64,000 bases of DNA from Marsupella aquatica (lineage: Eukaryota; Plantae; Marchantiophyta), in assembly GCA_973895155.1 (NCBI GenBank), contig OZ316895.1:18609880-18673879 (forward strand). Direction: 5' to 3'. The translations under genes were made by a program, and so were the position numbers. Within the stretch, counting starts at the first letter, position 1; each line of letters starts with the position of its first letter. Shown piece by piece: positions 37,328-60,128 of the stretch. The notes under the pieces are model-generated. The model searched no databases. It saw only the letters and a list, made by a program, of their open reading frames with translations, and was not told the DNA's origin.

Positions 37328-37777
37328 CTAGAGCATGTGATCCAAACATGTGTAGACACCAAAGTCACCGGTGGTGGGGTCTGGGAGGGCAGGACAAGTG
37401 ACATCACCAGGCACACTGCAGGATGGCGAGTGGTTCCAAATGATACATTGTGCTCTATGCAAAAATCGGCATCCAAGAGAACGGTCATCCAATTCTGGGC
37501 CAGAAGCCCTACAGGCAGGACAGTCATATTGGCAACTGTGTACACACCCTTGGCACCTAATTTGTGGCGGGTCATGTACAAGAGACACAAATACCAAGGA
37601 TGTCGGGAAGGGTACTGAAGCAAGTAGAGGCCGGCTGTAGTTGTTCCTGGAAACAACAGGGTACTCAAAGTACCATGCAGACTGGGCTGGAAGGATCCCA
37701 AGTCTGACATACTCAAGGCGCAACATCTCTGCCTTGCGTGCAAGTCGCACATGTTCAGCGTTGCGGGTCCTCACCAT
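37328..37777 (-). CDS. Hypothetical Cys/His-rich protein (149 aa), possible CACTA cargo
   Basis: ATG-initiated open frame in a GC-richer island, co-oriented with the other cargo ORFs; CQGC-x3-C-x3-CPAC cluster; no family recognised. Confidence 0.4.
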   Translation of the reverse strand: MVRTRNAEHVRLARKAEMLRLEYVRLGILPAQSAWYFEYPVVSRNNYSRPLLASVPFPTSLVFVSLVHDPPQIRCQGCVHSCQYDCPACRASGPELDDRSLGCRFLHRAQCIIWNHSPSCSVPGDVTCPALPDPTTGDFGVYTCLDHML

Positions 37778-38772
37778 AAGTGTTGCTTTTGTTGTGATGT
37801 CCTCTGTTCACGTCCTTTGATGAGCAAGGTGAGCAGGAGGTCGACTTGCCTCGCCAACAGCAACCACCTAAACTAATCAGTTCCCACTCAACTACAGGTC
37901 ATAGTATACACATAGCATGAAACGTGCATAGTACATATTTGATTCTGAGTTTATGAGTTTCCTAAGACAAAGAGCTTGGTGATAAACCCATATTCTCGAT
38001 GGACATGTATATCAATCGTATTAAAATCCTGTTTTTTCATCCAGAAAGACCGAAAGTCTCACCTTGCAGGTTGCAGCAGAGAGAAAATTCACTGGTTGTC
38101 GTGTTGTGCAAGTGAACCTCCACTGATGCCCCCGGTGTAGCCCCTCAGATGCAGGTGACACTTACCAACTCCCAAGTTGCCTGGTCTAACAGAAAATGCT
38201 TATATCTTCAGAACTTTATAGAGCAAGTACATGATCACATACTTCTGGATCTATTCATATTTGGAACTCTTGCCAACTACAACTCCCATTATGCACAAGC
38301 TCACATCAACAGAGAAAAATACAGAATGCATACTTACTATGGCTCTAAGCACCTTCACTACCTTGTTGAACCCAGTCCTGAAGTCTTTTCAGCGTGTTTG
38401 TTGTGCTGTCTCCTTTGGCACCCAACACCTTAGTCCTTGATGTAACAGAATGCGATTTTACAAGTTAGATGCTTTGGAACCTTCTATGGTCTTAGCTGAA
38501 TTGATGTCATCGTAAGTGGTGAAAGACAAGGAAGACGAAAGCTGGTTGAAGAGCTGTGGACAACACACTAGCATGAAGTGCTTCAACCAATCCACTGCCA
38601 AACGGAACTCTTACACAGTCACATTCTTTCAGTAAACAGAAACTCAATCAAACTTCATAATCAAAGTACAGACTCTGAAGGACCAAAGGAGGATGTTGTG
38701 AGTTTCTCTGTTGTTTAATGTGTTACCCTTCTAGTTTCGAAGTTAGCAAATGCTGAATAATGTGTCTACCAG

Positions 38773-39112
38773 ATCTTCGAAAAGAAGCCCACCACAATTA
38801 AGAACTTTGGTATCTGGGTGAGGTATCAGAGTTGTACAGGTTATCCCAACATGTACAAGAAATATTGTGATACCACATTAAACAACCACACAGCAGATGT
38901 ATGATGAGATGGCTTCTTGTCATAGAGTTCGGTTCCCTTGCATCCAGATCATCAAGACTACGACAGTCCCTGTCTCTCTGTGCAAGCGAGAAAGTACCAA
39001 GCAGTTCCATGATTCAAAGATCAAGTTCCCCTTGACGTACCGCAAGATTCAACCTCCATCGCGAAAGCTAAAGACGACTTACAAGGCCACCAAGCCCAAC
39101 ACATTTGTTTGA
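38773..39112 (+). pseudogene. RPL18A: Captured last exon of 60S ribosomal protein L18a (eL20), frameshifted
   Basis: [27 protein letters not shown]...DTTLN / [20 protein letters not shown]...[18 protein letters not shown]...[15 protein letters not shown]; preceded by an AG acceptor. Confidence 0.93.
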
Positions 39113-40951
39113 GTAGTGCGGGTGTAGGTTCCCAATTTTGAAACAATTTGGCTCATTTTATGTCCCGAGGGACTCCAGGAGTTTATGTATTGAGTTTCTA
39201 GGTCAAGATGCTTAATATAAGGAAATTCAATTATCACCTCGTTCCCAACTTCTATTAATTGAATATACACAAGCTGGAAGCAAGAAGACAAGCCACAATC
39301 TAGCATCTTAGCCAAACACAATCGTCCCGACAAAGCAAAACTCAGCTGGACAGAAGTCACTCGGATCCACAAAAAATTGAAGATTCACCTCCAAGCCGGA
39401 GGCCGATCACTTCAGTACAGCAGCTTCTGGACGGAACAAACTCTGCTCAGCCCCACAAAAACACAAATGTTAAGGCTCCAAGTCAGAGCTCACAAACAGA
39501 AACTCAGATAAATAACATTCAAAATCTGTCCAGGTTTGTGCAAAGTGTACATATTCATTCTTCTGGAATGAACACGCAATGCATACATCGCCTAGACACA
39601 GTCATTATAAATCATTGGGCAATTGGGGACCACTAAGCAGGTGTGTTCCTATTTCGAGGCTACAAGAAAGGATAGAGTGACACCAAACTGAAGAGTACAC
39701 CAAAAGAAAAACAGCAAGAACCAAAGTCAATCATGTGTGGATATTTTGCACATGGGAAGTTCCCCTGAAGAAGCACCAGTTGCTAACATTGTCACCCGAA
39801 CCACACCCAGTTTATTACCTCAATGTCTTCAGCCTCAATATCCAATCCTCAGCCCCCTGGTGCTTCCGTGTTTGTTCTGAAAATTTCTGTGATGAAATAA
39901 TTATTCAATACATTCAATAGCAAAGAGAACTCAATCACAAAAGAAAAATAGTTAGTGTGAATGCTAATTTCTCAACACTTAACTAAATTCAAACCACCAA
40001 TTCAAGTAGTAAGTTTCAAAAACTTGCCTTTACATGAAGAGAAACCAATTGGCCATGCATGTTACTAAAGCAATAAACAAATAATTAGGCTCAACCCCGG
40101 GCTCAACACACAGGCAAACTACTCGAAACATGCTGCTGAGAAGTAACATTTTTTGAATGTCAGACTATGTGTAAGTGCCATGATCGTGCTCCTACGTTTC
40201 ACAAGGAGGGCTGGCCCGAAAGGGAGAAGCAACAATGTGGAGTCTATACACGTAGCACAAATCCCAGTTTAGAAGGGTGGATGAAGTTCAGACAAGAGTT
40301 CAGAACTTGCCATTTGAGATTGCCAATCTGAACTTCACATTCAGACAGGACTTCATCCAGTTCAGGAGTTCAGATAGGAGTTCAGACAATCTGAAGAGGA
40401 CTTTGGACTTGAATGAGGGACAGCGTGGCCATATAGTTATCCTTGTGGCCTTCAGCTGCGTGTCTCAGGCTGAATTTCACTTTCCAGTTTCGAGAGTTCT
40501 GAAGGTCTAGTTTTAGTAACTTCCTCCTGACTCGACTTGGGAGCATTCTCCCTATTTGCTAGCTTGTAGTTAGCTTTGACTCCTGTGAGCTTAGTTGACG
40601 ACCCTCTTGAGATATTAACAATTAGAACAAACACAAGTTGTCAAGACAGATTCCACCGGAGCAAAAAGTCCAAAATCAGGTGAAAGAAAACCTAAGGAAA
40701 GTCCATAAGAACGAAAGTAGGAAGGCAGGTGCACGGGCCACCGAGAAAAGTAAAGGATGCATGTGATTAGTGGGGAGGGATCTTAGCAAAAATAGGGGAA
40801 AGCAAGGGAACTTGCTGCTAAAATCAGCTGAACGATTGCACGGTTCCTATAAATTTAGTGGACCTTAAGGCCGTCTGTTCAGCCCCCCACCCCATTGCCA
40901 GAGCACGGGGCACAAGGCATGTTCTGATACAGGGAGGAGCAAAACAGTCAT

Positions 40952-41997
40952 GTCAAGCAAGAAATGTGGAGAGACCAATCAGTAAGCAAAAATAGGGGAG
41001 AACATACATACATGATCAGCAGCAGCAGGAAACAAGAAAGATGATTTTGGGTGGCATCTTAGGGTCGGGGACACCACTGCAACACCGGGACTTAGGATAT
41101 GAGTTGTTCTTAATCTGCTAGTAGCATCCGGCAGGCCGGCGACCCATGGCAAAAGGGCAGAGCAACAATCCGCTAAAACTACCGAGTCTCACCTTTGCGC
41201 TACTGACTGTCACCTTTGTCCAAGGTAGCTAGTAATAGCAAGTTGAAGTCCCGCTCCAAGTTGTCGGCTTCCACTCCAAGCTCCCTAAAAGATTGTGGCC
41301 TCAGGTCCAAGTCGTTAGCTCGCACGCGCAACTCCCTAAACCTACACACAGCGGAAGCTTAGCTCACCAACAACTTGCAGAAACAATGACCTCCCCTCTG
41401 AAACTGATAAAAACACCTGAATACAAATAGTGAAGCACGAGGACAGAACAGGGAGAAGCGTTTTGCAGTTTGGGACGACAATGCTAGGAGTGTATACACT
41501 TCGGGCAACAGGGAGGTCCAATAATAGTTTGAATCTGACGGATGAAGCTCTAGGCGAATGAGCTCCAGGAGATTGGGTGCATGATTGAGTAGGCAATTGT
41601 AACAGCAGGCACCTGGCGATTGAAGGAAGCAGCATTCGGCAATGGACCTAGGCAGCTCGCGAATTTTGCTCAGCAGCGATGTCACCTAGACCCTAAACAC
41701 GCAATGCATACATCACCTAGACAACTATACTTGCAGCCACGAGGTGAGTCCGCGATAGGGGATTGAAGGAAGCAGCAAGTCAAGCAAGAAGCGTGGAGAG
41801 ACCAATCAGTAAGCAAAAATAGGGGAGAATAGACATACATCAGCAGCAGCAGGAAACAAGAAAGATGATACTCTGTTCCATCTTAGAGTCGGGGACACTA
41901 CTGCAACACCGGGACTTAGGATATGACTTGTTTTTAAACTGGAGATAGCATCCAGCAGGCCGGCGACCCATGCCAAAAGGGCAGAGCAGCAATCCGC
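40952..41997 (+). repeat. Diverged ~220-bp direct repeat (40952-41173 and 41778-41997)
   Basis: Shared GTGGAGAGACCAATCAGTAAGCAAAAATAGGGGAGAA...GCAGGCCGGCGACCCATG...AAAAGGGCAGAGCA.CAATCCGC. Confidence 0.88.
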
Positions 41998-43539
41998 CAT
42001 GTAGCGATAGGCGAGAGCAGCGATTACGACGATGAAAGATGGTCAAAGCTGAAGCAAAACCCCTAAAGATGCAGCTTGGCCATACTCTCTTTCCTCACCT
42101 CATAGCGCTAGGCATTCAACCTCCCTCTTCAATGAACCTCACAACAGCTTGAAGGTCGATAGATTTTACCTCGTCTCCTGAGCAGAAACGTCTGCATTAG
42201 CTGAACAGAGCCCGGAACAGAGCTATCGCATTTAGCCTCCCGACTCCAAAATTGAACGCAACACAACCTCCAACTCCCAATGGCAGCTCAGTAGGTTGAT
42301 CAGCTCGGTCAATGCAGGTCAGTCGACCTCAATAGCCACACTAGAAGCTCACCGCAAGTCACTCAAAGGTCAGACTAGAAGCTCCGCCGCCTTCACACCG
42401 TAGCAAAAAACAATGAGACCAATATCGAGCAAGGCGACCCTGTTTGAATATTTGGCGACCATCAGGCTCCACCCCTCCTTTCTCGCTACCGTTCCCCCAT
42501 GTGATGGTTAAGCTTCTGAGGACACAATCAATCGCACAAATGTAGCTTAAAGCAGGACCTCACTAAGCAGACTATCGGTTAGGACCTTATAGACATAGAG
42601 ATAGATAGGTCAATGCAACCTTACTTGGGCCGATGCAGCATGTCTCTTCACAATGTGAAGCAGCGCAGCATTCCTCCACCTAGCTCGCAGTGATCCTCCG
42701 CCTTGCTTGCAGTAACCAGCCTCCGCCTAGCTAGTTTGCACTGTCACGGCTGCAACTTTTTGTGCAATGACTTGGCCCTCCTACCAACTACGAGCTCCCA
42801 AAAGTATGTCGAGCAGATGTACACTCAGGCACCACCTCGTAGAGCTCAACTCCAAGTCGGCAGCTCTCACTTGAAACTCAATAGCAGCTTAGCTCACCAG
42901 CAGGTTGAAAAGCGACAATGGACTCCCCTCAAAACTGATTGGCAGACCTCCACACTGACGCTCGTAGCAGGCCCAATCCTAAACACATTTGCACCCTAAA
43001 GTCCAGTCGCGCTCAAACACTTTCAAACGACCCTGCAGGAAGTTCGCGAAGAGTGCAGCTGGAATGAAGGTCGTCGACTCCCAATTTCCCTCGCAAAACC
43101 AACCTCTGCGGCACACTGACCCTGAACACTTAGGGCAAGTAGTACCCCCAAAATCTCTCGCAAAACCAACCTCCAAGGTACACTGACCCTGAGGGAAAGT
43201 AGTACCCCTCACATGTGGGCAGCCATCGAGTGACTTAGCAAACAGGTTGGTTTGGACATAAAAGAACCAATGCAAATGACTTAGCAAAAAGTTCAATGTG
43301 GGGAGAGTGCACTTTGGTCAAGAACAAGGCCAAATATAGTCAGGTATGAATCCACATTATAAGTGAAAGTACCCACCATTCTGATGAAAACCCCCATATT
43401 TATACCCATTATATTTGGACTTATTGAACCATGAGTGTGCAATATGTAGTTGCACCGGGAGTTGCATATTAGGGATTGGCATCCGAAATTGGCTAATGGG
43501 GTATGCATGCTGACGGAATTTTAAAAAATGATGTCCAAT

Positions 43540-43770
43540 TCATATTGCACTATTGTGGAGTAACTAACATAACTTACCTATTTCTTACTTACTAGTGTTA
43601 CAATAGCGACATTGGATAAAGTTGTAAGCATGACTTCCCACAACCTCACCAAAACTTAGTTGGTATGATGTAACTAACATGACACCCACAAACTTGGAGT
43701 CGCATATTTATGAAGGTCTCGCACAAGTCACATAGGGGAGGGTCTCAGAATGGGTGGTTTTCTTCTAGTG
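43540..43770. repeat. CACTA right subterminal region and TIR
   Basis: TAACTAACAT twice, AGTCAC/GGTCTC motifs, ends TTCTTCTAGTG. Confidence 0.7.
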
Positions 43771-46757
43771 TTGCGTGCCTCCTCTAGTTCCTTCTGGGCT
43801 TCCTCCCGTTCTTGTTTCAAGGTAGTCCTCTCCTCCTGGGTTGCTTTTAGCTCCTTGTCGAGCTCTGCAATGATGACAGACTCCATCTGGTTCATCTTGG
43901 CGTAAGTCTGTTCGAGCATCTCGTCCTTCTCCCTTAGGTCGGCCTTGAAGCTGGCCGTCAGGGACGCAAGCTCCTGCTGCAGCACCATAATCCCTTGATA
44001 GGATTTCCCTAACTCGGCCTCCTTCTGCTCAAGGGCTCCGCGGATTTTCTCGAGCTCCCCTTTCAACGCCCATTCCTTTCTTTGGGTCTCCGCCATGGCC
44101 CGGCTGTTGGCTGTTATGTGGGCCTCCTTTGTATTCTTCAGCTCTTGCTTCCACTTCTCCCTCTCTTTGATCGTGTCGGCCAACTCTTCCTGCGTCTGAG
44201 TCAGTTTATCCTTGATATTCTGATTATCAGCCTGCGCGGTGTCCAACTGCCCCTGCATGATGTTCAGCTCATGTCGTTTAATCCGCAGTTCATCTTGGGC
44301 TTTCTTGGCCGCCCTTAGATCTTCAATCTCGGCTTCCATCCTCCTAAGCCGCCGAATGACCTCGTCCTTCTTGCTTCTCTCTAAAGCCACCGCTTCTTCT
44401 AATTGGTGCTTCTCCAACTGCTCCCTATGGAAAAAGGGTCCTACCTCCAACTCCTCTCCAAAGATGCCGAGCGCAAGTTCCCCACACATCTCACCATACT
44501 CCATGGCTCTATTCTTAGCGTAGGTGGAGTAAGTAGAAGTGATCGGCATCGCCCATCGCGGCCTCTGCTCCCAAGCCGTCCTGCGGATCTCTTCAATCGT
44601 GGCTAGAGGTTTGCTTCCTTTTTTGGCTAGCCGCCTGATGTCCTCCGGCCAATCTCCTCCTGGTAAATCCTTTTCCTTAGCCAGGGCGGCCTCCTCCTCC
44701 TGCTTGATTCGCTCCTGAAATTCCTGCACCGTCTATTTTATGCCGTCGAAGCTCGGGGGAGCAACATCTGGTGGGGGAGACTCAGGGCTACTCTGCTGGT
44801 TGGGGTCCCCTCGCACTACCCTTGGAAGTGTGGGGACAAACCGGCCACAGGTCCTTACTCCTGGAACGTGATGGTCCGACCCATAGCCAGAATTATCATG
44901 GCTGCAGTCCTCCACTGCCTCCTCTACCTCTTGGACGTCCGGCTTCTCCCTCTCCTCTTCGTCGGTAGGAGCTTCAGGCAATTCTGCCTCAAATTCGGAG
45001 CTTGAGGTTCCCACGTACATTCGAACACCTGGCTTGGATTCCGGCCTGATTCTCTCCTTGTCTCCAGCAAAGGGGTTTTCTCTTGTGAGCCGGTGTAGGC
45101 CTACCTCTGTAGTAGTGTCCTGCATTGTTGCCGTTGCCGTTGTTGTTGCCGATGCCGATTTCTTTTCTTTCTCCAGTAGTTTCAGCAGACTCTGCATGCC
45201 TGGTTGCTGCATCGGCAAGTCTTCCTTCTTGGGCCTAAACACCTGCTCGATCGTAGGACTAACAGGTGGTTGAGGCTTCTCAGCCAACGGCCTCGGCGTT
45301 GGAGCTTCCTCGGCTGCCCTTACCTGCAGGGGAAGTACCGGGGCAAAAGTCTGACCTCTGGCATACCGGCACAACAGCGGCATGTGATAGCCCAGCCGCG
45401 ACACGCTCCCCATGCCGATTACCTGCTGCTCCTCCTTTAAGATCTTCTTCAATTGGTTGAGGAGGTACCCGTTGTAGTCCCGGCTTGGGTCTGGCCTTTC
45501 TGCCAGATAGACCTGTGCCTTGCCGATCTCTGCCCTCGGCAAGTTACAATGCATGGTCACCCGCAAGAAGTCGATCATCTCTCCTATGTGCGGGTTGGTG
45601 CAGGTGTTCCGGAAGAAGCCATTCTTCGTTGATGGCCCGGGGAATGACCGGAACTCCTTGTCAGGCAAGGTCTTCCTGGTATCAACTTTGGTCTTATTGC
45701 CTATCGGCAGGCCAAACACTTCGGCAATTACCTTGGGAGTAAGATAGAAATCCTTCCCATATATCCTCGTGCAATTGGTCTCGGGTTCCCATGACCCCAC
45801 GAATTCTAATAGGTCTGACTCCGGTACCTCCGGGTTCAGCCATGGTAATCTTACAAAGGCCTCCAAGCCGGATCCGGCCATGAAGCCTTGGTACTTCTTG
45901 GTCTGCATGGCCGTAAAGCATGCATCCTCCTCCCGTGCAAAATGTAGTTGCACCTCCACCGGTAGGGTTGCCGCCCAGCCCTTCCAGGTGTCATCCCTGG
46001 TTGGAATGGCCTTGATGGGATCGACCTCCTCCTCTTCGGCTTCTCCCTGCCTCCTGCTCTGCTGCTCGGCTGGCTTCTTTGGTGCCGCCGACCTCATTCT
46101 TTTTGCCGGGGTGGCTTCATCGTTGACGGCTCCCTTCCTCTTCATCTCTGCTGCCGTGGAGGTTTCTCCTAGCACCATTGCCTGGGTCCACCTTTCCGTG
46201 CTACCCTTTAATTCCCAATGTATGTCGTTGCAGTTCTTGATGGCCTCTCGGATGCCGACGACGCTTTCGTTGCAAAACAGAAGATCGTCGAGTTGATTGG
46301 AAGTAGGCGTCCACAGGAACTCGTCCTTGATGAGTTCGCCTCCTAAGAAAGCCGTCTTCTGCAGCTCCCACAATCGAGCGAGCTCCTGTCGTTCTCGAGC
46401 TGCCCTTTCTGATTCCTCGTCCTTGTAAGTCTTGATGTACTCAGTTGCCCGTTCGAACAGGCATCCCCAGAAATGTGCCGCTTGATTGACGTTGCTCATA
46501 CCCTCCTTAGGTCGATCGTCGGTATCTACTCTCTCCCCGAGTGCTTGCCTAAGCAGCTGACAGTAGTTGGCCTCCCGTAGTCGTCTGCCTAGTTCGTGCT
46601 CGCAAATGAGCCACCATCTCCTGCAAGCGCTCCTTACCCCTCTCCTCTGCCGGTCCTTCTTCCCGTTGATCCTTCCTAGCCGCCGACGCTTAATGCGCCC
46701 TAACCCTAATCGGGTTTTCACCCTCAGCCTTACCTCCGGCCTCGGCCCGGGTTCCAT
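43771..46757 (-). pseudogene. LTR-encoded ORF, copy in C 5' LTR (one stop at 44733; split by CACTA, ends at 24879)
   Basis: 674-aa and following in-frame segments; the frame continues on the other side of the CACTA element. Confidence 0.9.
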
Positions 46758-46872
46758 GGTTGCCCCTAATTGTTTATATTTTCCTTGTTTTGTCCCTATA
46801 CTAAGGTGTTCCTAGGGTGCCTTCCTGCTTTACCCACTTAACCGGCCGAGTGATTCCTGTCTAGGCATCACA
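43771..46872 (-). repeat. 5' LTR of element C, proximal part
   Basis: Starts TGTGATGCCTAG at 46872; colinear with the B 5' LTR. Confidence 0.92.
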
Positions 46873-49691
46873 GTCCTTGACCTCTTCGTCTTCTTCTTCC
46901 AAGTCACCTTCCATTGGTTCTTGCCATAATCCGCTGGGGGGTACCTCTGGTCCCAAGACACTTTCTTTGGTTAGATCAGTGAGGCATTCTAACCAACGTA
47001 CTTCATCGGCTGACTCCAGTCCACTGTCGTACCCATCTACTTCCCTTATGCTTTTCCTACGGTCATCCTTAGTGTCCCAGGATACCGTGATAGATGGGGT
47101 CCTGAAAGTGAACTGCTTTTTACCCCAATCTTCTATTACCTCGGCTAGGTACAGCCATGGCCTACCAATCAATAGCCGGAATGACGTAGGATTTACCGGC
47201 TTCATTACTACATAGTTAATGCTAAAGAAAATACCTCCTATCTCTGTCTTGATGCCGGTTAACACTCCCGTGGGAATGACCTGATACCCATTGGCCATGT
47301 TTAGCACTCTTCCAGTCATCTCTGGTGTTAGACCCCACCCTTTTGCTGTTGAATCAATCATAATACATACCCCTGATCCTCCATCGATGGGTACCCGTAG
47401 TAATAATTCTCCTTGAATCATTAATGGTAATGCTGGGGCTCCTTGATCTTCTTCTATCATTAGTACGTCGGATCTGGTCGCTACCTTGGGTAATCTCGGC
47501 TTGCTGAGAATAGCCTTCCTTAATTGCTTCCGGAAGTACGGGCTATTTTTCAATAGTTGCCCAACTGTTGCCGAGACTCTAGACTCTAGTACATCTTTAG
47601 CCAGGTCATAGGGAACAATCGGCTTCTCCTCTGGTGGTGTCTCCATCTTGGATTCGGCCTGTTTTGCCATGCTAGTCTCCACAGCTGTTGGATCCTCCAA
47701 AGCGAACAATGCTTTTGCTCGTTTCACATCCTTGGCAATGGCTTCGGTATTCTCCAGGGTTTCTAATTCTCTCAGTTGTTCCTTAACACTAGCCGTAACA
47801 GAGGGGTAGAACAACTTAGGATGATCTCGATTGAAGTCGCTATCTTGTGAAGGATTGGGTTCACTGGTGGGCTCATGGCTTACCTGTATTGCCGGAGCCC
47901 TCCCTTCTCCTTCCGTTGATGTTGACGAAGAGTCGATCTTTTCCTCCGTAACCTTCCCTTTATTTTTGGCCAGCCCATCCCACCTTTCCTTCCTTCTGGT
48001 AGATCGAGTAGAGACCCGGTAGCAATCATGATCTAAATCTTCTTCTGAGAAGGTTGATAGGGCCTCGGCCTCATCATCAGATGGTACGAACTCTACCTCG
48101 GCATCCTCTTGCCATCCTAGTTTGATGTGGTTGATTTGAACTCCTCCGGGGGTAGTACCTGGCGGTAAGACCTTTATTGGCAAGAGCTTATGATTTGCGG
48201 CCAGGCCTGCCACCCAAGTAGGACATTGCCCTAGCATATGACCTTCCTGTCGGCATCCCATACATAGTTGAGCTGGTTGTCCATCACCCTGTTTGCGAGC
48301 ATTCGGGCATTCTCTAGCAAAATGGCCAGGTTGACCACAATTATAGCATGCCGCAAATCTTTGCACATTCGGCCTAGGAGGTACTGACGGGTTCTGAATA
48401 ATCCGAGGATACATCTCTCCTGGATTGTTCCTTAATCCTGACCACAGGGATGCAGGTCTGTTGGATAGGTCTCGTGCTCCAGTCTCACTGATGCCGAAAA
48501 CACTATCAGTGGCATCCCCTAAAAAGTACTCTACTTCTCCCTGACATGGTCTGATCTCGGCCACATGCCGAACATGATTAGTATTAAGTTTAGGACACGC
48601 ATCTTTATGGTGTCCGGTTTTATAACATAAGGCACACCATACAGAGCTATCCTCCTGTACTACCTTCTTCTACGACTTTACCTCTGCAATTATAGCCTTA
48701 AGTTGCTCGGTAAGGGCTACGATGTTATCTGGTGGCTTAGCCTCCAACTTGACTTTCGTCTTCCCTCTCCTTCTGCCCTTCCTTTTCCTAGTTTTTTCTT
48801 CTTCAGAACTAGAAGATGACTCACTCTTGCTACTTCCACTATCCGAGCTTGAGTTATCACTTCTTGACTTCTTAGAATGTTTCTTCTTCTTATCTTTTTT
48901 CTTATGGGGTGATCCCTCCTCTGATGAGGAACTCTCAGACTTAAGCTGTTTCTTCCGGCTTGTGATATCTGCATTAATGTATAATTGAATATCCTTAATT
49001 GCATCGGCTAAAGTCTCCGGGTTCTCCTTCCTAATTGCAAAACTCATCTTCTGTGGCAAAGCATTCACCAACCATTGAAGTTGCATACCTTCAGATGCAT
49101 TGGTCTTTGTACGTCTTACTAGTTTCTGAAAGCGTTGCAAGAACTTCCTGAAGGATTTGTTCTCCTTGAACCGAAGTCGTCCCAACTTCAGCACTGCTAG
49201 TTCTGAAGTTCCAATGGGTCGAAACTCCTTAACAAAGAGTGTTTTGAAGATATCCCAGATGGCTTGATCTTCCACATCTAATGCTCTGTACCAAGGCCTA
49301 CCCTCACCCTTGAACAGGCCAGGAAGAATCTGCATCTTGATGGCCGATTCTCCATTTGCTGCAACGGTTCCCTCGAAATCATCCAACCATTCGTCCGGAT
49401 CCTCATCTCCTCTCCCATGAAATGCCTTGTAATGTATGCGCGACTGTTGGCTCAGTCTGGTCCCTGGCCTCTCGTCTGGCCGTGCCTCTGGTTCCCCCAT
49501 GTCGGTTGGAGACTCACTTCTCCTTACCGACTCTTCTTCTAGTATGTCTTCTTTGACGCCACTTCCAGCTTCGGAGCTACCAGCTCTTTCTGCCCCTCTC
49601 AGTCGCTGTGTATCATGCCACCCGGCGAGCTGCTGCAGTCGAGCTCTCTCCCGTTGAATCACTCTTTCTTCCTCGGCGTAAGGTCAGTCAT
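46873..49691 (-). pseudogene. gag-protease of element B
   Basis: ORFs 49662-48670 and 48564-46861, near-identical to gag-PR of C; interrupted by element C. Confidence 0.93.
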
Positions 49692-49738
49692 TCCCTACGC
49701 TTCCTTTCTAACTTCATATCTCACGGCTTAAGAAATGC

Positions 49739-49756
49739 CCCCTCCATCTAGCGCCA
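49739..49756 (-). other. Primer binding site (tRNA-Asn type) of element B
   Basis: TGGCGCTAGATGGAGGGG, 4 nt from the LTR end at 49761. Confidence 0.8.
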
Positions 49757-49760
49757 AAAA

Positions 49761-52700
49761 TGTGGTGCATCCCATGGCTCCCTAAACCCAAGGAACCCCC
49801 CAGCTCAAGCCGATTCCCGTAGGTTTCGCGCTTGGCGAGGCCGTTTCCGTGGCTTAGCGGCATGGGACGCTGCTAACTTCCTTCTACTATTAACATTTTA
49901 CACACATATACTGGACAGATCCTTCATCGGGTCATGAGATACGTAGCCGGCCTAATCTAGGCCTTCCCTTGTCTTCCCCTCCATCTTGTTAGGTATGTTT
50001 GGATTCCGCCGCCGGAATGATCCCCAATAGGCTTGGTTAAGCCGCTAAGACCACTCTCAGCTCGACACATCCAACTCTCTCACTCCCTTGCTTACTTTCC
50101 TTCCTTCTGGTTGATGTGGGCACTCTTCACACAAGTTAATTCGACACAAATAGCAAAATGACTCCTTCTGACTGAGTCATACCATGCACTTGCCATACAA
50201 ACAGTACATCTCATACACAAGCTCTGCAAACTAAGCCGTGAGGCCAACTCTATTCAGCTCTTAGGCATGAGGAAACATGAATATACACAAGGTCACGGTA
50301 TGACTAACCGAGAGCTTCTCTTACTACTTGATCCCAGCCCGGCTGGTGCAAACTAAAAACTTGCTAAAGAAGAGGCCCTGAGCTCCCCGCTGCCCAGGTA
50401 TTTATCCTGGCAGTGGATCTGTCCAGAACTTTGCTGCGTAAGCTTAATCTATCCTACCTGTAATCTACCTAACTGTACAGCGAGGCAGGAGCACAAGTGT
50501 TGCTCCTGCCAGTGGAACCGCAATCCCACTAAGCTAAGTGTTAGGGCCGCCTCCTGGTCCTGATCCTAATCCTAAACTTGGAGATCAGCGCCCGCCCTGC
50601 CCACTCACGCCTCCTACCTCCACGTCCGCCCTTCCTAAAAGGAACGGCGCCCTTGCACCGTCACGACACCGGTGGTGGATCCTCAATGGACGCCCCCAAC
50701 GCTTCCTCCTCAGCCACTGTCGTAGGTTCATTCTCTGACAGATTACCTGCCCTTGACTGAGTCAACTCTCCATTGGCCTGACTGGGTCTACCATCGGCAT
50801 CAGCGTCGGCTCGGGAATCATTCTCGGCTACGGCCTCAGCCTCGGCTATGGTCTCCCCGGCCTGCTCAAGAGGCGGATCTGGGATACCAGCCTCATTATT
50901 GAGTAGTTCGGCTTGGGCCGCGCCATCCCCACCTTTGGTGATAGCGGGATCTATTGCCGTGTTCATGCCGGAGGTTGGTGCTGGGTCTACCTCCTTGGTC
51001 ACCACGGCCAGTGGAGTCGTATTACTTCTTGACCCTGAAGGTTTCCGCTTCTTCTTCTTCTTTTCTGGTTCGGCAGCTGGTCCCTTCCCCTTCCCACTTA
51101 CTTCCGTCACTGGTGCAGGTGGCGCGGCTTGTTCTTCGGCCAGTACCACTCTTGGTAACTTGGTTGCCCCAATTGGAGTTGGGCCTGATGAAGACAAGCA
51201 CTTAAATACTGCGGCTTGTTTCTTCAGCCGCTCTGTTTGGTTGTCAGCCCGCCGTTGTAGGTTCTCCATCTTCCTCGTGATTTCCTCCAACTCCTCCTGC
51301 ACTTCGTCCAGGTCTTTGCGCGCCTCCTCTAGTTCCTTCTGGGCTTCCTCCCATTCCCTGTGGGCTTCCTCCAGTTCTTTCTTCAAGGTAGCCCTCTCCT
51401 CCCGGGTTGCTCTTAGCTCCTTGTCGAGCTCTGCAATGATGACAGACTCCATCTGGTTCATCTTGGCGTAAGTCTGATTGAGCATCTCGTCCTTCTCCCT
51501 TAGGTCGGCCTTGAAGCTGGCCGTCAGGGACGCAAGCTCCTGCTACAGCGCCATAATCCCTTGATAGGATTTCCCTAACTTGGCCTCCTTCTGCTCAAGG
51601 GCTCCGCGGATTTTCTCGAGCTCCCCCCTCAACGCCCATTCCTTTCTTTGGGTCTCCGCCATGGCCCGACTGTTGGCTATTATGTGGGCCTCCTCTGCAT
51701 TCCTCAGCTCTCGCTTCCACTTCTCCCTCTCTTTGATCGTATCGGCCAACTCTCCTTGGGTCCGCGTTAGTAGATTCTCGATCATCCGATTATCAGATTG
51801 TGCGGTATCCAACTGGTCCTGCATGATATTTAGCTCATGCCGCTTAATCCGCAGCTCATCTTGGGCTTTCTTGGCCACCCTCAGGTCCTTGATTTCGGCT
51901 TCCCTTTCCCTAAGCCGACAGATGACCTCGTCCTTCTTGCTTCTTTCCAAGGCCACCGCTTCTTCTAATTGGCGCTTCTCCAACATCTCCCTCTGGAAAA
52001 AGGGTCCCTGCTCCAACTCCTCCCCAAATATGCCGAGCGCCAGTTCTCCACACATCTCCCCGTACTCCATGGCTCTGTCTTTAGCATAGGTGGAGGAAGC
52101 AGAAGTCATCGGCATCATCCACCGCGGCCTCTGCTCCCAAGCTATCTTGCGGATCTTTTCAATCGTGGCTAGAGGTTTGCTTCCTTTTTCGGCTAGCCGC
52201 TTGATGTCCTCCGGCCAATCTCCTCCTGGCAAATCCTTTTCTCTAGCCAGGGCTGCCTCCTCTTCCTGCCTGATTCGCTCCTGAAATTCCTGCGCCGTCT
52301 GTTTTATGCCGTCAAAGCTCGGGGGAGCAACATCTGGTGGGGGAGACTCAGGGCTACTCTGCTGGTTGGGGTCCCCTCGTACTACCCTTGGAAGTGTGGG
52401 GATAAACCGACCACAGGTCCTTACTCCTGGAACGTGATGGTCCGACCCATAGCCGGAGTTATCATGGCTACAGTCCTCCAGTGCCTTCTCTACTTCTTGG
52501 ACTTCCGGCTTCTCCCTCTCCTCTTCGTCCGTAGGAGCTTCACGCAATTCTGCCTCAGATTCAGAGCTTGAGACTCCCACGTACATTCGAACACCCGGCT
52601 TGGATTCTGGCCTGATTCTCTCCTTGTCTCCAGTAAAGGGGTTTTCCCTTGTAAGCCGGTGTAGGCCTACCTCTGGAGCAGTGTCCTGCATTGTTGCCGT

Positions 52701-54441
52701 TGCCGTTGTCGTTGCCGATGCCGATCTCTTTTCTTTCTCCAGTAGTTTCAGCAGATTCTGCATGCCTGGTTGCTGCATCGGCAAGTCCTCCGTCCTTGGC
52801 CTAAACACCTGCTCGATCGTAGGGCTAACAGGTGGTTGAGGCTTCTCTGCTACCGGCCTTGGTGCTAGAGCTTCCTCGGGTGCCCTTACCTACAGGGGAA
52901 GTACTGGGGCAAAGGTCTGACCTCTGGCATACCGGCACAACAGCGGCATGTGATAGCCAAGCCGCGACACGCTCCCCATGCCGATTACCTGTTGCTCCTC
53001 CTTTAAGATCTTCTTCAATTGGTTGAGGAGGTACCCGTTGTAGTCCCGGCTTGGATCTGGCCTCTTTGCCAGATAGACCTGTGCCTTGCCGATCTCTGCC
53101 CTCGGCAAGTTACAGTGCATGGTCACCCGCAAGAAGTCGATCATCTCTCCTATGTGTGGGTTGGTGCAGGTGTTCCGGAAGAAGCCATTCTTCGTTGATG
53201 GCCCGGGGAACGACCGGAACTCCTTGTCAGGCAAGGTCTTCCTGGTATCAACTTTGGTCTTATTGCCTATCGGCAAGCCAAACACTTCGGCAATCACCTT
53301 GGGAGTAAGATAGAAATCCTTCCCATATATCCTCGTGCAATTGGTCTCGGGTTCCCATGACCCCACGAATTCTAATAGGTCTGAATCCGGCACCTCCGGC
53401 TTCAGCCATGGTAATCTTACAAAGGCCTCTAAGCCGGATCCGGCCATGAAGCCTTGGTACTTCTTGGTCTGCATGGCCGTAAAGCATGCATCCTCCTCCC
53501 GTGCAAAATGTAGTTGCACCTCCACCGGTAGGGTTGCCGCCCAGCCTTTCCAGGTGTCATCCCTGGTTGGAATGGCATTGATGGGATCGACCTCCTCCTC
53601 TTCGGCTTCTCCCTGCCTCCTGCTCTGCTGCTCGGCTGGCTTCCTTGGTGTCGCTGACCTCGTTCTTTTTGCCGGGGTGGCTTCATCGTTGACGGCTCCC
53701 TTCCTCTTCATCTCTGCTGCCGTGGAGGTTTCTCCTAGCACCGTTGCCGGGGTCCACCTTTCCATGCTACCCTTCAATTCCCAGTGTATGTCGTTGCAGT
53801 TCTTGATGGCCTCTCGAATGCCGATGATTCTATCTTCACAAAACAGAAGATCGTCGAGCTGATTGGAAGTAGGAGTCCACAAGAACTCGACGTTGATGAG
53901 TTTGCCTCCTAAGAAAGCCGTCTTCTGCAGCTCCCACAATCGAGCGAGCTCCTGCCATTCTCGAGCGGCCCTTTCTGATTCCTCGTCCTCGTAAGTCTTG
54001 ATGTACTCAGTTGCCTGTTCGAACAGGCATCCCCAGAAATGTGCCGCTTGATTGACGTTGCTCATACCCTCCTTAGGTCGATCGTCGGTATCTACTCTCT
54101 CCCCGAGTGCTTGCCTAAGCAGCTGACAGTAGTTGGCCTCCCGTAGTCGTCTGCCTATTTCGTGCTCGCAAATGAGCCACCATCTCCTACAAGCGCTCCT
54201 TACCCCTCTCCTCTGCCGGTCCTTCTTCCCGTTGATCCTTCCTAGCCGTCGACGCTTAACGCGCCCTAACCCTAATCGAGTTTTCACCCCCAGCGTCCTT
54301 ACCTCCGGCCTCGGCCCGGGTTCCATGGTCGCCCCTAATTGTTTATATTTTCCTTGTTTTGTCCCTATACTAAGGTGTTTCTAGGGTGCATTCCTGCTTT
54401 ACCCACTTAATTGGCCGAGTGATTCCTGGCTAGGCATCACA
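49761..54441 (-). repeat. Complete 5' LTR of element B (4681 bp)
   Basis: TGTGATGC...GCACCACA inverted termini, bounded by the TSD on one side and the PBS on the other. Confidence 0.95.
50661..54326 (-). pseudogene. LTR-encoded ORF (~1220 codons, two CAG>TAG stops): plant-transposon-protein-like domain plus long coiled coil
   Basis: Segments 54326-52890, 52808-51543 and 51485-50661 are all in one frame; the motif LLEFVGSW...IYGKDFYLTPKVIAEVFGLP is followed by an E/K/L/Q heptad-rich region. Confidence 0.9.
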
Positions 54442-54446: not shown

Positions 54447-55822
54447 GCCATAGATTGCATCGAGACCGATTTCCCGACAAAGAGCTATTCGTTGTGGAAA
54501 TAGCTGATACATGGTACCCTGAGATTTTGCAATTTCTCAGCACGTCCAGATTATAGCCAGGGCCAACCCGAGAACAAGCCGCAGTCTTTCTGCGGAAGGT
54601 CAGACAGTATCAGTACATTAAGGGTGTGCTACACAGGTATGGAATCAGCGGCATGATTCAAACGTGTTTGGAGAAGGGAGAGGTAAAATGAGTCTTACGG
54701 GCTATGCATGGGGAGGAGGCCGGCAGACATTTTGCTCCAGTAACCACGTCTAAAAAAATATTAAATACCGGTTACTGGTGGCCCACCTTGCACAAAGATG
54801 TCTATCAGTTTATCAAACAATGCGATCCTTGTCAACGAGCGGGAGGACCAAGGGCGTCCACAAGACATCCTATGCACCCTATTCTACCTATGGCACCATT
54901 CGAGAAGTGGGGTATTGATTTCATGGGACCTCTGAAACCATTGACCCATCCTCGGAGAAACAAGTACATAATCCTGGCCACGGATTATGCAACTAAGTGG
55001 GTAGAGGCCAGGCCAACGACGAAGGATGATGCAATTACTACGGCTCGATTCATGTATGAGCAGATCTTCACCACGTATGGAGCACCCGTAGAATTAGTTA
55101 GTGATAGAGGAACCCATTTTCTGAATCATATAATTAGTCGTTTAAATGAGCAGTATTTAGTTAGACATAGACCTACTACTCCTTACCACCCAAAGGCAAA
55201 TGGGTTGACAGAACGAGCCAATGGGATTATAGGAAAAATATTAAACAAGACTGTAGCTCAAAACAAACTCGATTGGGATGATAAATTGTTTGTTGCTGTT
55301 TTTTATTACAATTTAGCCTATAAATCCACTACCGATCATACACCCTTTTTCTTAACCTTTGGACAGGAAGCTCTGTTACCCATGCAACTTGAGATACCTA
55401 CATTTCAAATTACAATTGAGGAAAGAGTCTTTGAGGAGGAAAGCCTAAAGGAGCGAGAATATAGATTAGAAGCTTTAGAAGAAGCAAGAATGATTTCAGG
55501 CAAGAGAGTAGAATATAGACAGAATACCATGAAGCAGCAGTATGATAAAAGATTGAAACCAGTTAGTATCCACACAGGAGATCTTGTATTACTTTATGAT
55601 AGTAGGTATAGTAGGTTCCCAGGTAAACTTTACACTCGCTGGTTAGGACCCTTCAGGGTAAACATGAAGTTCTCCAATGGCTCCGTGCAATTGGCCAACA
55701 TTACTGGAGAAATATACCCAGTTCGCATTCATTACGACCGCCTCAAGAAATACTATATGGACGAAGATAAAGTTGTTCGCGAGGATGCTTCACAATTAAG
55801 TGGGGAGCTATGTGATGCCTAG
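54447..55822 (+). pseudogene. Integrase region of element A
   Basis: ORF 54704-55822 with HHCC finger, WGIDF, SDRG, NGLTER and WLGPF; stop codon lies inside the 3' LTR. Confidence 0.93.
55798..55807 (+). other. Polypurine tract of element A
   Basis: AAGTGGGGAG, 3 nt before the LTR start TGTGATG. Confidence 0.6.
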
Positions 55823-56127
55823 CCAGGAATCATTAGGCCAGTTTAAATAGTAAAATCAGGAGTGTACCCTAGGAAACACCTTAGTATAGTAACAAAAATA
55901 GGGAAATATAAATAATTAAGGTGACTATGGAACCCAAGCCGAGGCCGAAAGTAAGAACGCCGGGGGAGGGAACACGATTAGGGTTAGGGCGCGCTAAGTA
56001 CCGACGGCTATGGGTAACCAACGGGAAGGAAGACCAGCCAGGGGGGTAAGGACCGATCGCAAGGAATGGCGGCTCATTTGCAAGCACGAGCCAAGCGAAT
56101 GACTACGGGAGGCCAACTACTGTCTGC
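55811..56127 (+). repeat. Start of the 3' LTR of element A (interrupted by element F)
   Basis: Homologous to the first ~315 bp of the B and C 5' LTRs; similarity ends abruptly at TGTGACGCC. Confidence 0.88.
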
Positions 56128-56485
56128 TGTGACGCCACCGGTATGGCGGTTAATGAGTGATTCAGTCTAACTGCGCTCTGCATGCGCGTTAGGTGGGTCT
56201 TAGGCCGCTATTATTAGCATAACGACAGTATTTAGGTAATCATTAGGGGTAGGACATCATTAGGCAATAAGGGGGACTTCAGGTTCGGACTGGCGGCGGG
56301 TCGCTATTCGCACACCCGGGTTACAAGCGTGGAAGGACCCCTCCCTCGGGTCCGTATAACGAACTTAAGGAAGCGGCCACTGACGCACGCTGACTCAGAC
56401 CGGCGGAGTGGCCGGTACACCACAAGCGTGAGCGGTTCAGCCTATGGGCGTCGAGGAGACGTCGGGGATCGACAAGCCCTCAAAG

Positions 56486-56491
56486 TATAAA
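56486..56491 (+). promoter_or_regulatory. Putative TATA box of the family-2 LTR
   Basis: TATAAA-GGGGAGCCAACCCTTTGTA followed by a CT-rich tract, about 100 bp upstream of the LTR ORF ATG. Confidence 0.55.
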
Positions 56492-56592
56492 GGGGAGCCA
56501 ACCCTTTGTAGTGCACCAGTCCATCAGTCCGCGCGCCAGCTTCGACCCCAGTTCTCTCGTTCTCTCTAGGTCGCCACTACTATCTCCTTTGA

Positions 56593-59238
56593 ATGTCGCA
56601 CACGATCCTCTCCAGCTCGGCCATTCAATTCTGGACGCAGTTCCTATCTACCGAAAGGCACTTGGCCGATTCATTGAAACACGCCAACCCGCGCCGATAC
56701 GAAATTGAACGCGAATACGAGAGAGCCATCCGCCTAGCAGGACGACACCACTACGTCCTTAACTTTGACTACCCGTCTCAGAGCGAGCTTTACCGACCAG
56801 CAGAGGTATCTGGGTACTTCTTCAACGGAGACAAATATATCGGGTTCTGGGAAGCATTGCTTCGGCTTCCGGACGAGGTCTTCAATATCCCGGGTACAAT
56901 CGACCTGCAGCGATATCACTTCGACCACATCCCTGCCCGGGTTCGGGCTGTCATTGACGGCGAGTCCAGTACCAACCGTTCGACAAGGGCGTCCGCACTC
57001 GCTTCGGAGAACTTCTACCAGCACCTGCAGAGCTTCATGGGAACTCGGCCATCAACCAACATGACCAACTCAGCCGTGCCCGTACCCGTACCCGTGCCCA
57101 TGCAACCCCAGCCTCAACCTCAGGCTCAGCTTCAGCTTCAGCCTCAGCTGCAGCCTAGCCAAACCCCACCACCTATCACCCAGCCAACACAGGTACGCTC
57201 CATCATCAACGCTGTGGATCTTAGCGATGACGACGAGGCTACCCCACCCTTGACCAGGCGGCCTAGAGGAACAAGCGCTCGGGGGGCCGACACTATATCG
57301 TCCCCACCCCCTGCTCTGACCCCAGGAGCGGCCCCAGCAGACAACATGGTGACCGTGGCCGCCCCGGACCCGTTACCAACGGCAATGGCACTCCCCAGGC
57401 CCGATCGGGAGGATGGGGAAGTATCACCTTCCCCGAGTCAGTCACGGGGAAAGAAGAGGAAGGAATCCGCCACTGCATCCGGGTTACCGTTGGCCACGGT
57501 AGCCGTAGCCAAGGTGACGATGCACCGCATGGGGGAAAACGTTCACAGCAACATCCTCCATCCCAAGCATGCGGTGTACCTGAAGACTCAGGGATTTGAG
57601 CACCTCACCTCTCTCCCCTGGAATACTTGCAGGTACTACGGGGAGGACATGACAAAATTCGTCAAGAATTATGACGACGTACGTCAACAGACTCAGCTGC
57701 GGGGAAGGAATATGTCCCTCACAGAAGAACGGCTCAAGATGATCTTTGGGTTACCCGAAGGTGACCATCGAGTCGAATCACGGGCTCCCGGGGGCAAGGG
57801 GGCCAAGTACCAATCTTCAAGTTTTCCCTCAAAGGGAGCAGTAGACAACGGGTTCGTGATGAGGACCTGCCTCATGCCCGAGATAGCTGAGCGGCTGGAG
57901 TTCCAAAGGTACGCTCTCCACATGATGGAACCCTGGGGGGAGATCTCCGCCGCCCAGGTTATCTAGGTCGAGAACTATTGACCTAGGAAATGGGCATCGT
58001 ACTTCGCTAAGAAATTCCATGAAGAGATGGAGCGGCGAAGGAAGACGCTGTACATTGGCGGGAAGGCGTATTTCGCTAGCCACATCAAAATCATTCTTGA
58101 GTGGTACGCCCGGTTTGATCGACGAACCCTTCCCCGCATCAACGTTACAAAGCTGGTCCCAGCTAGGTGGGTTTTTCCGGCATTGGAGAGACGGCCCCAA
58201 CCCGAGGCCCGAAGTCCAGTGGACACGCCAGCTTCACCCACCCCACCTCCACAAATAGCTGTAATCGTAACCGAGGAGGCGCCGAAGGGGTCGGTCGTCG
58301 CAACCGTTGATGCAACCCAACTAGCCGGGCTAAGTACAGAAGTTGGTACGGCAGAGGTCTTACCCAAACCCGGGTCTCCCAAGGACCCACCGGTGGCAAT
58401 TCCGGAGAACCGGACATTGCTGCAGGAGGACACTCCAGCCCCTTCCTCCCCAGGGCTGGACGTCACTGCCCCAGCCCCTGCGCGTGTTGACGTCTGCCCG
58501 TGCCCAAATCCGGACAGGCACAACTTGGACCACCCGAAACTCTTCGTACAGGGTACGTTTCTGAACGGGCTTCTGGGAGATTTCTCTCATCAAATTGCCC
58601 GGGATACCGGGGAGTTCATGGCCCGGAAGGTAGCCTGTTTCTTCAATCAGGAGTTGGTTGCCGCTATAAAGGCAGGTCGGGCCCAGTCGGAGGCCCTTCA
58701 GAGGATAGAGCGGTACCGGGTGGAGTCCGTGTACCTAAAGAACGAAGTGGCGGCTCAAGAGGCTGAGCTTCTACAACTACGACCCAAGGTTGCAGCCGCC
58801 AATGAGTTGTTAGCAAAGGCGCACGCTCTTACCGCCCTAGCCGAACAGGCCAAAGCTGGGAACGAGGCCGAGATTACACGACTCCGGAACCAGATTGACA
58901 GTTTGAAGAAACAAGCTGTCACCTGGCAGAAAGACCTAGAGGAGGCCGAGGAGCGAGCCCAGCGAGACACGGCGGAGATAGCCACGCTGCAGGCCGAGAT
59001 AGCGCGGCTCCAAACCGAGGCCGAGAAGCAAGACCAGCTGGCGGGTAAACTGACAAGCGACGCCCAGCAGCTGGAGGAGGCATGTCAGGAGGCAGCAGAG
59101 GAGACGGACGCGGCGAGGCGAGAGAACGAATCTCTGCTGGACCAGGTCCAGCTCCTCAAAGCGGACAATGATAGGCTTCAAAGGCAGCGGGATGGCCGTT
59201 CCCATTCGGGTGGCTCTGGCAAGCGTGCCAGGCATTAG
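56593..59238 (+). CDS. LTR-encoded ORF of family 2 (~880 codons, one in-frame TAG at 57964-57966), coiled-coil C-terminus
   Basis: 457-aa and 403-aa ORFs in the same frame; block GFEHLTSLPW...LRGRNMSLTEERLKMIFGLP...DNGF..TC..P.I.E..EF.R aligns to the family-1 LTR ORF. Confidence 0.82.
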
Positions 59239-60128
59239 CGGCGGAGTAGGAATAGATTAGGATTAGGATTGGCTTAGTCAGGCTCTTGGGACAGGCACCT
59301 GCCTTAGGTACAGCAGCGCTGCCCTGCTGTCCAGCCTGCGTAGATTAGGATCTTCTAATAAGACATAGCCGTTTTTCGGCCTGACTGTCAGCTTAGTTAG
59401 GACCTTAGTCAGCGAATCTTTGGCGAGAGGACACCCCGTCCCTCGGTTCTTAGTATTTAGTGCACCCCTCGGTAGAGGCAGGGGGGGTTTTTAGTTTCAG
59501 AGTCGGACATCCACGGGATATGCGGGGAGTCCCGACCTCTGGGAATGAAAGAGTACCAAGGGGAGGGGGTAGGACTAAGCTCGCCGGGCGAGTGCGGAGC
59601 CGGGCTCCGTTGTAGTGTGCACCCTCGGCCTTGAACCTGTTCATTCCAGGGCTGTCGGGTCAACTAAGTGTACGCATATGTTCCCTTTGTAGTAAAATCC
59701 TTTCCCATCATTTTCCTTCGTGTAAATCGAGATATGTGTGTGGGTTTCTCGTATATGGTGGGCAGCGCCAGGCCGAACGCACTACCTGAGACGTGCACAG
59801 GGTGCAGCCTGCGGGTAAGTGGTTGCGAGCACGGGTTGAGGACCTGTATCATCGAATCCGGATCGAAGGCGGACAGCACGAAGGCTTAGAAGCCCTTAAG
59901 CCGGGGTTGATCCTGCTATCGACTAAGGTATGTTCCGGCGGCGGAACACAAACTATACCTAGGAGGTGTCCGTATTTAGCAGTATGCGCACTTAGCGCTA
60001 GTTTACGAGAATAAGGTGCATTACGTGCTTCCCTTCCTGCCCGAACCCTCAGATTTACGAGGGATGTGCCCGTCTAAGCTGAAGTCTGAGTTAAGGCCGA
60101 AGCCTACGACGTGACATAGCCTTTGTTT

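Follow-up and report, generated by a model that had tools for sequence, protein, structure and literature searches.

A gene under purifying selection inside the 4.7-kb long terminal repeat of a liverwort Ty3/gypsy retrotransposon

Protein-coding genes that lie within or overlap a long terminal repeat (LTR) are familiar from retroviruses, examples being sag of mouse mammary tumor virus (MMTV), nef of human immunodeficiency virus and bel/tas of foamy viruses. In a 64,000-nucleotide stretch of the liverwort Marsupella aquatica (GenBank assembly GCA_973895155.1, contig OZ316895.1, positions 18,609,880 to 18,673,879 of the forward strand; hereafter the window, numbered from its first base), a retrotransposon termed element B carries a gene inside its 5' LTR, at 49761-54441. 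This gene is several times larger than the retroviral LTR open reading frames (ORFs) and takes up roughly three quarters of its LTR. A relation to the retroviral genes was found neither in sequence nor in fold, a search of BFVD with the better of two structural models giving no match. Element B represents a non-chromovirus Ty3/gypsy family with a gene under purifying selection inside a 4.7-kb LTR.

In plants, the accessory genes of comparable elements have been described in other places. Extra ORFs (eORFs) are classed as lying 5' or 3' of the polyprotein, none being recorded there for Phygy or Selgy (PMC6317226), and are described in the internal region (PMC7264820, PMC11963269). An LTR-encoded gene is not mentioned in the accessible parts of PMC12885004, PMC7466625, PMC7497039 and PMC1142308, and narrow searches of the open-access literature found no plant precedent for a gene located in the LTR. 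The 3' eORF of Athila ('env-like'; PF03078 ATHILA ORF-1, PF20167) lies, like the gene described here, in sense orientation just past pol, and the core of the protein shows a remote match to it. Athila is listed with a 5-bp target-site duplication (TSD) and no extra RNase H (PMC6317226), both of which also hold for the window elements, and Arabidopsis Athila ORF2 is expressed from a spliced subgenomic RNA (PMC7197481). In the Athila-type locus L001, however, the eORF is internal and stands before the polypurine tract (PPT), whereas in the window elements the PPT precedes the gene, which is thereby duplicated in both LTRs; the window pol appears to form a separate bryophyte clade. Ogre and Retand (Tat) are also long elements with accessory ORFs, and a plant mobile domain (PMD) is present in 57% of Ogre elements (PMC6317226), but Tat elements carry an additional RNase H that the window elements lack, and Retand has LTRs of 315-1,194 bp and antisense ORFs in its internal region (PMC11963269). 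Non-chromoviruses can have LTRs as long as about 5 kb. Phygy, a moss non-chromovirus gypsy lineage, shares with the window elements a bryophyte host, a gag-pol filling nearly the whole internal region and the lack of an additional RNase H, but has 4-bp NCGN TSDs, mostly tRNA-Trp priming and a length of 7.7-10 kb (PMC6317226), as against 5-bp TSDs and about 15.4 kb for the family of elements A, B and C described here. Among DNA transposons, VANC21 (DUF1985) of VANDAL elements and the PMD proteins are transposon-encoded and combine a conserved domain with variable regions, as does the present protein. VANC is a protein that recognizes motifs in DNA and takes methylation away (PMC5735166), and PMD-C is reported to be structurally similar to the DUF1985 of VANC (bioRxiv 2024.09.27.615353).

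The 4,681-bp unit is the LTR of a nested retrotransposon

By self-comparison the window was resolved into a nest of elements A, B, C and E, in which element B (-, 54441-9780) is inserted in pol of A, and C (-, 46872-17635), of the same family as B, in pol of B. The two copies of the long unit in B, the 5' LTR (49761..54441, -; 4,681 bp with TG...CA ends) and the 3' LTR (9780..14438, -), are 97.9% identical over 4,663 columns (Kimura two-parameter distance, K2P, 0.0188; 81 transitions and 5 transversions), and the LTR pair of C differs by a K2P of 0.0087 over 466 bp, in agreement with the nesting order. The insertion of B is flanked by the TSD AACCT (9775-9779 and 54442-54446) and that of C by AGGAC, each consisting of exactly the five bases that are surplus relative to uninterrupted paralogous pol. 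The exact primer-binding site (PBS) motif occurs four times in the window (3811, 23953, 49756 and 60129), each time just past an LTR end and never upstream of an ORF; a fifth match, with three mismatches, is at chance level. The PBS of B (49741..49756, -) differs from that of L001 and may match tRNA-Asn, Athila primers being tRNA-Asp or tRNA-Asn. In element A, the LTR 5' end (55811) comes immediately after a purine tract, and the pol frame stops 12 bp within the LTR. Pfam searches of the window proteins found Gag, reverse transcriptase (RT), RNase H and integrase in Ty3/gypsy order; together with a protease, these are arranged between LTRs with TSD, PBS and PPT. A single RNase H was detected by Pfam, the linker between protease and RT is of low complexity, pol ends at the LTR, and there is no chromodomain. 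The original prediction had drawn the LTR limits from a TSD, a PBS and the PPT-adjacent start in A, and the two TSDs, the four PBS sites and the purine tract of A agree on them. The unit 54441-49761 (-) is thus a true LTR, and the layout with the gene inside it can be taken as very nearly certain.

It was also considered that the real LTR might be short, the ORF an ordinary internal 3' eORF and the long repeat a tandem, permuted or recombinant structure. Such a situation exists in L001, where 6.19-kb repeats each hold a 1,267-codon ORF and yet the LTR is only about 1.4 kb. In B, moreover, there is a purine tract with TG after it at 40-55 bp past the ORF stop, and a normal PPT junction is absent from both B and C: the 3' LTR of B is missing about 27 bp at its start plus about 145 bp of internal sequence including the PPT, while about 4.6 kb spanning the PPT/3' LTR junction is gone from C. 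However, the 4.68-kb unit is bounded on the outside by exact 5-bp TSDs in two independent insertions, and in A the PPT directly abuts the same LTR 5' end. As the TSDs bound the whole unit, it is a real LTR, unlike the L001 repeats, and the idea of a short LTR, largely refuted by these observations, was judged very improbable. Full-length elements with short LTRs and an internal ORF had been named as the outcome that would count against the original prediction; instead, the PBS follows the ORF in A, B and C and in a second family.

Locus L001 (1-18746) is an apparently intact Athila-type unit with a 2,014-codon gag-pol, assembled as eORF-LTR-gag-pol-eORF-LTR, and its 1,267-codon internal 3' ORF matches no Pfam family. 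Serving as a control, it shows the usual order of pol, eORF, PPT and LTR, and it was rejected as a second element with an LTR gene because its PPT follows the ORF and its LTR measures about 1.4 kb. The deletions in the window, at 14438/14439 (B) and 18100/18101 (C), both cross the PPT and the start of the 3' LTR, and C keeps exactly the last 466 bp of its 3' LTR (18100-17635, -); clear microhomology is absent. These junctions could be due to later deletion or to aberrant reverse transcription of a very long LTR.

Selection on the LTR gene and its probable start

Within the LTR of B, a reading frame extends from an ATG at 54326 to a stop at 50661 (1,221 codons, 78.3% of the LTR). LTR copies are named below by element and end, B5 being the 5' LTR of B. 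The frame is interrupted in B5 by stops at 52890-92 and 51543-45; in B3 it is broken by two stops, one near 14300 and one near 12832, and by the loss of 1 bp at about 11522. These findings bear out the coordinates and disabling mutations first reported for both LTRs. All premature stops are private to one copy and no lesion is common to B5 and B3; the gene was therefore open when B inserted, as had been proposed. An element was also expected to hold two copies of the gene, which is so for B, but the 3' LTR of C is reduced to its last 466 bp. No intact copy was found in the window, every copy being broken.

Selection was assessed by pairwise codon counts between LTR copies with bootstrap intervals, a 75-bp unaligned stretch of A5 (1003-1077) being left out. 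This comparison between copies, suggested with the original prediction, gave ratios of nonsynonymous to synonymous substitution rates (dN/dS) far below 1, namely 0.23 for B5 against A5 (95% bootstrap 0.18-0.29; 922 codons; 129, 94 and 237 differences at the three codon positions) and 0.31 for B5 against C (0.23-0.40; 1,119 codons). The core domain of the protein gave 0.10 and 0.06, as compared with 0.89 and 1.37 in two shifted frames and 0.11 in pol, and the C-terminal tail of the protein 0.59 (0.38-0.90). The reading frame is kept by 3/3 indels in C, 4/5 in A5 and 1/2 in B3. The view that the ORF has no role for the element, being either a passenger that was captured or a side effect of purine-rich sequence, might be argued from the broken state of every window copy and from the B5-B3 ratio of 0.63 (0.38-1.15), which fits neutral decay after insertion and is the value expected from it. 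This explanation is refuted by the low ratios between elements, and the excess of third-position differences and the homologues found in a second family and in Calypogeia also speak against it; it was considered extremely unlikely, and the LTR frame is under purifying selection. Three antisense ORFs within the gene were dismissed as shadows, two of them being interrupted in A5 or C. The third has an open frame in B5, B3 and C, and A5 covers only part of it.

Translation probably starts not at 54326 but at Met88 (54065), so that the gene would occupy 50661..54065 (-; 1,134 codons, 72.7% of the LTR). For codons 1-87 (54066..54326, -), the comparison of B5 with A3 gave a dN/dS of 0.99 (0.48-2.36; 66 codons; 15, 16 and 11 differences by position), and A3 has a 4-bp deletion there; B5 against C was uninformative (3 and 3 changes). 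The sole TATA-type motif of the LTR, at +95 (54341..54347, -) and kept in B5, C5 and A3, stands only 21 bases ahead of the first ATG, which would therefore fall at or before the transcription start, the usual TATA-to-start spacing placing this start at or downstream of that ATG. From Met88 onward, the sequence can be aligned over the full length of the first 110 residues of the Calypogeia protein P0138 (pairwise E 0.002-0.003), and P0138 itself matches the beginning of the protein of element E (E 2e-6). As codons 1-87 are without coding constraint relative to A, the TATA motif lies at +95 and homology begins at Met88, a product of 1,221 residues is unlikely, and the 87 open codons are probably promoter and 5' leader. 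The frame originally described as a protein of about 1220 residues covering 78% of the LTR was thus upheld as a frame, but the protein itself probably has 1,134 residues, and the B3 stop near 14300 probably lies upstream of the gene. A point that counts against this start is that codons 88-260 alone show no significant constraint (dN/dS 0.44; 0.2-1.15). An out-of-frame ATG at 54183 (-; LTR +259), upstream of Met88, is present in B5, B3 and C5 and possibly opens a short upstream ORF.

Relatives and surroundings of the gene

A second, divergent family with a homologous gene in the same place is probably represented by element E (+, from 56128), which interrupts the 3' LTR of A and begins with TG where homology to A3 ends. 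It is a different family, with an RT 69% and a Gag 43% identical to those of C. Its probable 5' LTR of about 4.0 kb (56128..60128, +) has a TATA motif at +359 with a pyrimidine-rich leader, and its ORF (56593-59238, +; 881 codons, two stops) is homologous to that of B, with 26% identity in the core domain (E 3e-17). The only PBS of E, at 60129, follows this ORF and is itself followed by gag-pol from 60240; the 3' LTR and TSD lie beyond the window edge.

Further relatives were sought with the core domain in a HMMER search, which gave 21 representative matches. Two of the ten looked up carry a species name, in both cases Calypogeia fissa, and three of the 21 (P0128, P0132 and P0142), being repeat or unrelated proteins, entered none of the alignments. 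Homologous genes of Calypogeia are CAM6090539 and CAM6122807. Length-limited, word-based homologue searches found nothing for the ORF. When 80 metagenome loci fetched with pol were screened for the gene domain, a weak match was obtained in one, L057 (independent E value, iE, 0.16; hhalign E 0.002), whose pol is 55% identical; L054 was dropped as a relative (iE 1.2). In L057 (2378-4978), the pol stop is followed by a purine tract, TG, a TATA motif at +458 and then a 606-codon ORF with the same motifs, and the contig stops 215 bp after the ORF without a PBS, an arrangement that is consistent with the gene-in-LTR layout but not proof of it. Short repeats stand ahead of its TATA box, and the locus may stand for a second lineage that has such a gene within its LTR. 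A search of IMG/VR found nothing for pol or for the L057 ORF. In a midpoint-rooted pol tree of 53 rows chosen from 120 pol matches, plus L057 and with no curated references, the window pol clusters with two proteins of the liverwort Calypogeia (support 100/99), next to the L057 clade. The group in which it falls contains liverwort sequences and is separate from 20 rows, among them all 11 named angiosperm proteins; no named Phygy sequence was among the 120 matches. From this placement, a liverwort is the likely host.

The remainder of the window consists of the following parts. Element A (+) has a 5' LTR cut by the window edge (1..3806), which carries the last ~930 codons of the gene, a PBS at 3811 and an internal region that runs to 9779 and resumes at 54442; its PPT and the start of its 3' LTR (55795..56127, +) precede E. 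The internal region of B (14439..49760, -), with a gag-pol of about 6.1 kb, is split by C, and the 3' LTR of B holds the second gene copy. The 5' LTR of C lies in two parts (46872-43777 and 25528-23958, -), separated by an 18-kb CACTA/En-Spm transposon (25529-43776, -; 3-bp TSD) that is inserted in the LTR gene. The transposon has Transposase_21, DUF4218, DUF4216 and Transposase_24 domains; also within its span are ORFs for tandem BRCT domains (34412-35329) and for NSD-like PHD fingers (35877-36584). In gag of A there is a 1.7-kb solo LTR that belongs to another family (4112-5807, +; TG...CA, 5-bp TSD), its longest stop-free frame being 88 codons; no solo LTR of the A/B/C family was found in the window.

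Protein architecture, expression and possible function

From its probable start, the protein comprises an N-terminal helical domain (codons 88-200; 53727..54065, -), which is common to E and P0138, a disordered linker, the core domain (codons 261-475; 52902..53546, -), a further linker, a charged, proline-free region of about 265 residues with heptad periodicity and a predicted coiled coil (codons 781-1045; 51192..51986, -), a basic cluster near codon 1089 and an acidic tail. No membrane segment was found, the highest 19-residue hydropathy being 0.78 (B), 1.13 (E) and 0.84 (L057), and an envelope role was rejected for want of a transmembrane segment in these three proteins. The core profile was compared with a seven-row profile of Athila-type 3' eORFs (PF20167/PF03078 members, taken from fetched pol loci), which gave an hhalign E of 6.7e-5 and a score of 36, as against at most 11.7 in 30 column shuffles and 9.7 for the reversed profile. 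The profile match suggests that the LTR gene is remotely related to the Athila 3' eORF and may be a relocated accessory gene of a known kind.

For the core domain, Atlas clusters had listed DUF1985 (0.87) and PMD (0.86), values below 0.9 that were used as leads only; the Pfam DUF1985 family was absent from P0001 and 23 homologue or domain queries, and no PMD hit was obtained either. A model of residues 88-478 was built from 27 sequences, with a mean predicted local distance difference test (pLDDT) score of 65 and values of mostly 70-90 in the core. Foldseek, run against 350,542 chains, placed VANC21-DNA first (probability 0.51, E 1.0; other rows at most 0.03). VIA-align gave VANC21 a Z of 7.5 over 197 residues in one search, where it also came first, and, among 48,161 representatives, ranked VANC21-DNA first (Z 7.4, 203 residues, root-mean-square deviation 4.6), although by the program's own note a Z below 8 can reflect a common arrangement; the other 49 rows listed cover the N-terminal hairpin only, VANC21 alone matching on the core domain. 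The predicted core fold thus resembles, suggestively and at middling strength, the DNA-binding fold of VANC21 (9LNJ/9LNK) over about 200 residues. The match carries weight because it covers the whole domain and agrees with the earlier DUF1985/PMD lead, although both rest on the same sequence.

Taken together, these data are compatible with a nuclear DNA-binding accessory protein with a VANC21-like fold and an anti-silencing role, a reading that was given about an even chance of being correct. Several observations weigh against it. The Athila match covers only 62 columns with a probability of 64%, and the comparison of the core with an L001-type eORF profile was insignificant (hhalign E 0.065). 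Pfam returned only generic coiled-coil matches for the protein and no family for the core. The VANC21 match itself is middling, coming from a predicted model with the Foldseek E and Z values given above and 8-9% identity; a first, poorer model (pLDDT 57) matched no fold, and searching the PDB by sequence brought up nothing beyond chance rows. Unlike VANC21, the gene lies in a retrotransposon LTR, its product has a long coiled-coil-like region, and VANC-style tandem arrays of a target motif were not found in the LTR, where the best 6-mer has 7 copies, a number reached in 7/200 shuffles (uncorrected), and forms no long arrays. Furthermore, PMD proteins act against Polycomb and also indirectly support silencing (bioRxiv 2024.09.27.615353), so that the fold does not fix the function. 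It is accordingly conceivable, if less probable, that the same LTR gene does another job, such as serving in nuclear import or in tethering for integration, providing a particle scaffold by way of the coiled coil, or simply activating transcription, for which last foamy-virus Tas offers a comparison. Such a role would accommodate the coiled-coil region and the N-terminal helical domain, both kept in B and E and unexplained by the VANC21 match, as well as the lack of target arrays, and the function of plant extra ORFs is left open in the review PMC7264820. Within the protein, however, constraint is strongest in the part for which the match is a DNA-bound anti-silencing factor.

The non-coding LTR tail (49761..50660, -; 900 bp) is more conserved than synonymous sites, with a Jukes-Cantor (JC) distance of 0.11 between B5 and A5, as against a dS of 0.49 in the gene (about four times as high) and 0.33 in pol. 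A 14-base hairpin near 50010 is common to the B tail and to E near 59935, one outer pair being swapped; this and the constraint on the tail are as expected for RNA signals, and an Rfam scan of 49500-60300 gave 0 matches. TTAGG(G/A) telomere-like words in the LTR are strand-biased (10 sense against 1 on the other strand; 5 against 0 in E) and cluster at both LTR ends; the LTR is purine-skewed, and the bias may be one of composition.

On the preferred model of expression, the TATA motif at +95 would start a transcript near +125, translated from Met88. As neither B nor E has a TATA-type motif in its tail, this head promoter would drive the gene and probably also the genomic RNA, the conserved tail supplying poly(A) and packaging signals, so that the gene would lie in the transcribed repeated (R) part of the LTR, a placement that was slightly favored. 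The gene may instead lie in U3, with the head TATA giving a subgenomic mRNA only and a second, TATA-less promoter in the tail starting the genomic RNA, which was given a somewhat less than even chance. MMTV sag and the foamy viruses provide precedents for such a layout with a second promoter. Minus-strand strong-stop DNA would then stay short, and no poly(A) site would have to be read through 4 kb into the 5' LTR; the unusually conserved tail and the C remnant of exactly the last 466 bp would fit as well, and the accessory gene of Grande has its own promoter (PMC7264820). Against a tail promoter stand the missing TATA-type motif and, judged by eye, U-rich stretches with TGTA in the tail that resemble a plant 3' end.

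As to origin, the ancestor may have been an element with an Athila-type sense eORF between pol and PPT, having its own promoter. Plus-strand priming would then have shifted to a purine tract located right where pol ends, by which the gene would have been absorbed into the LTR; the purine tract and TG just past the ORF stop may be the old PPT. Each LTR would thereby have become a cassette of promoter, gene and terminator, and the core domain might bind the element's own DNA and block silencing in trans for all copies of the family. A wider proposal, that a bryophyte-wide gypsy lineage has made its LTR a self-contained anti-silencing cassette of promoter, VANC-like gene and own target DNA, and that the Athila 'env-like' ORF, VANC and PMD, instead of being envelope relics, belong to a single ancient family of transposon chromatin factors, is put forward as a less likely possibility.

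At this locus, an accessory gene of a plant retrotransposon occupies a position with no plant precedent in the literature searched, and it has a possible link to VANC-type anti-silencing. Its place in the LTR gives each element two copies of the gene and, by inference, each solo LTR one, and annotation that masks LTRs would miss it. A mostly coding LTR of 4.7 kb raises the question of the length limits of R and U3 and of poly(A) choice, and the domain link between the Athila 3' ORF and VANC21 offers a concrete hypothesis for the long-standing question of the role of plant 'env-like' ORFs. If the wider proposal is true, solo LTRs would keep supplying the factor, and deletion of retrotransposons by the host would spread a counter-defence gene.

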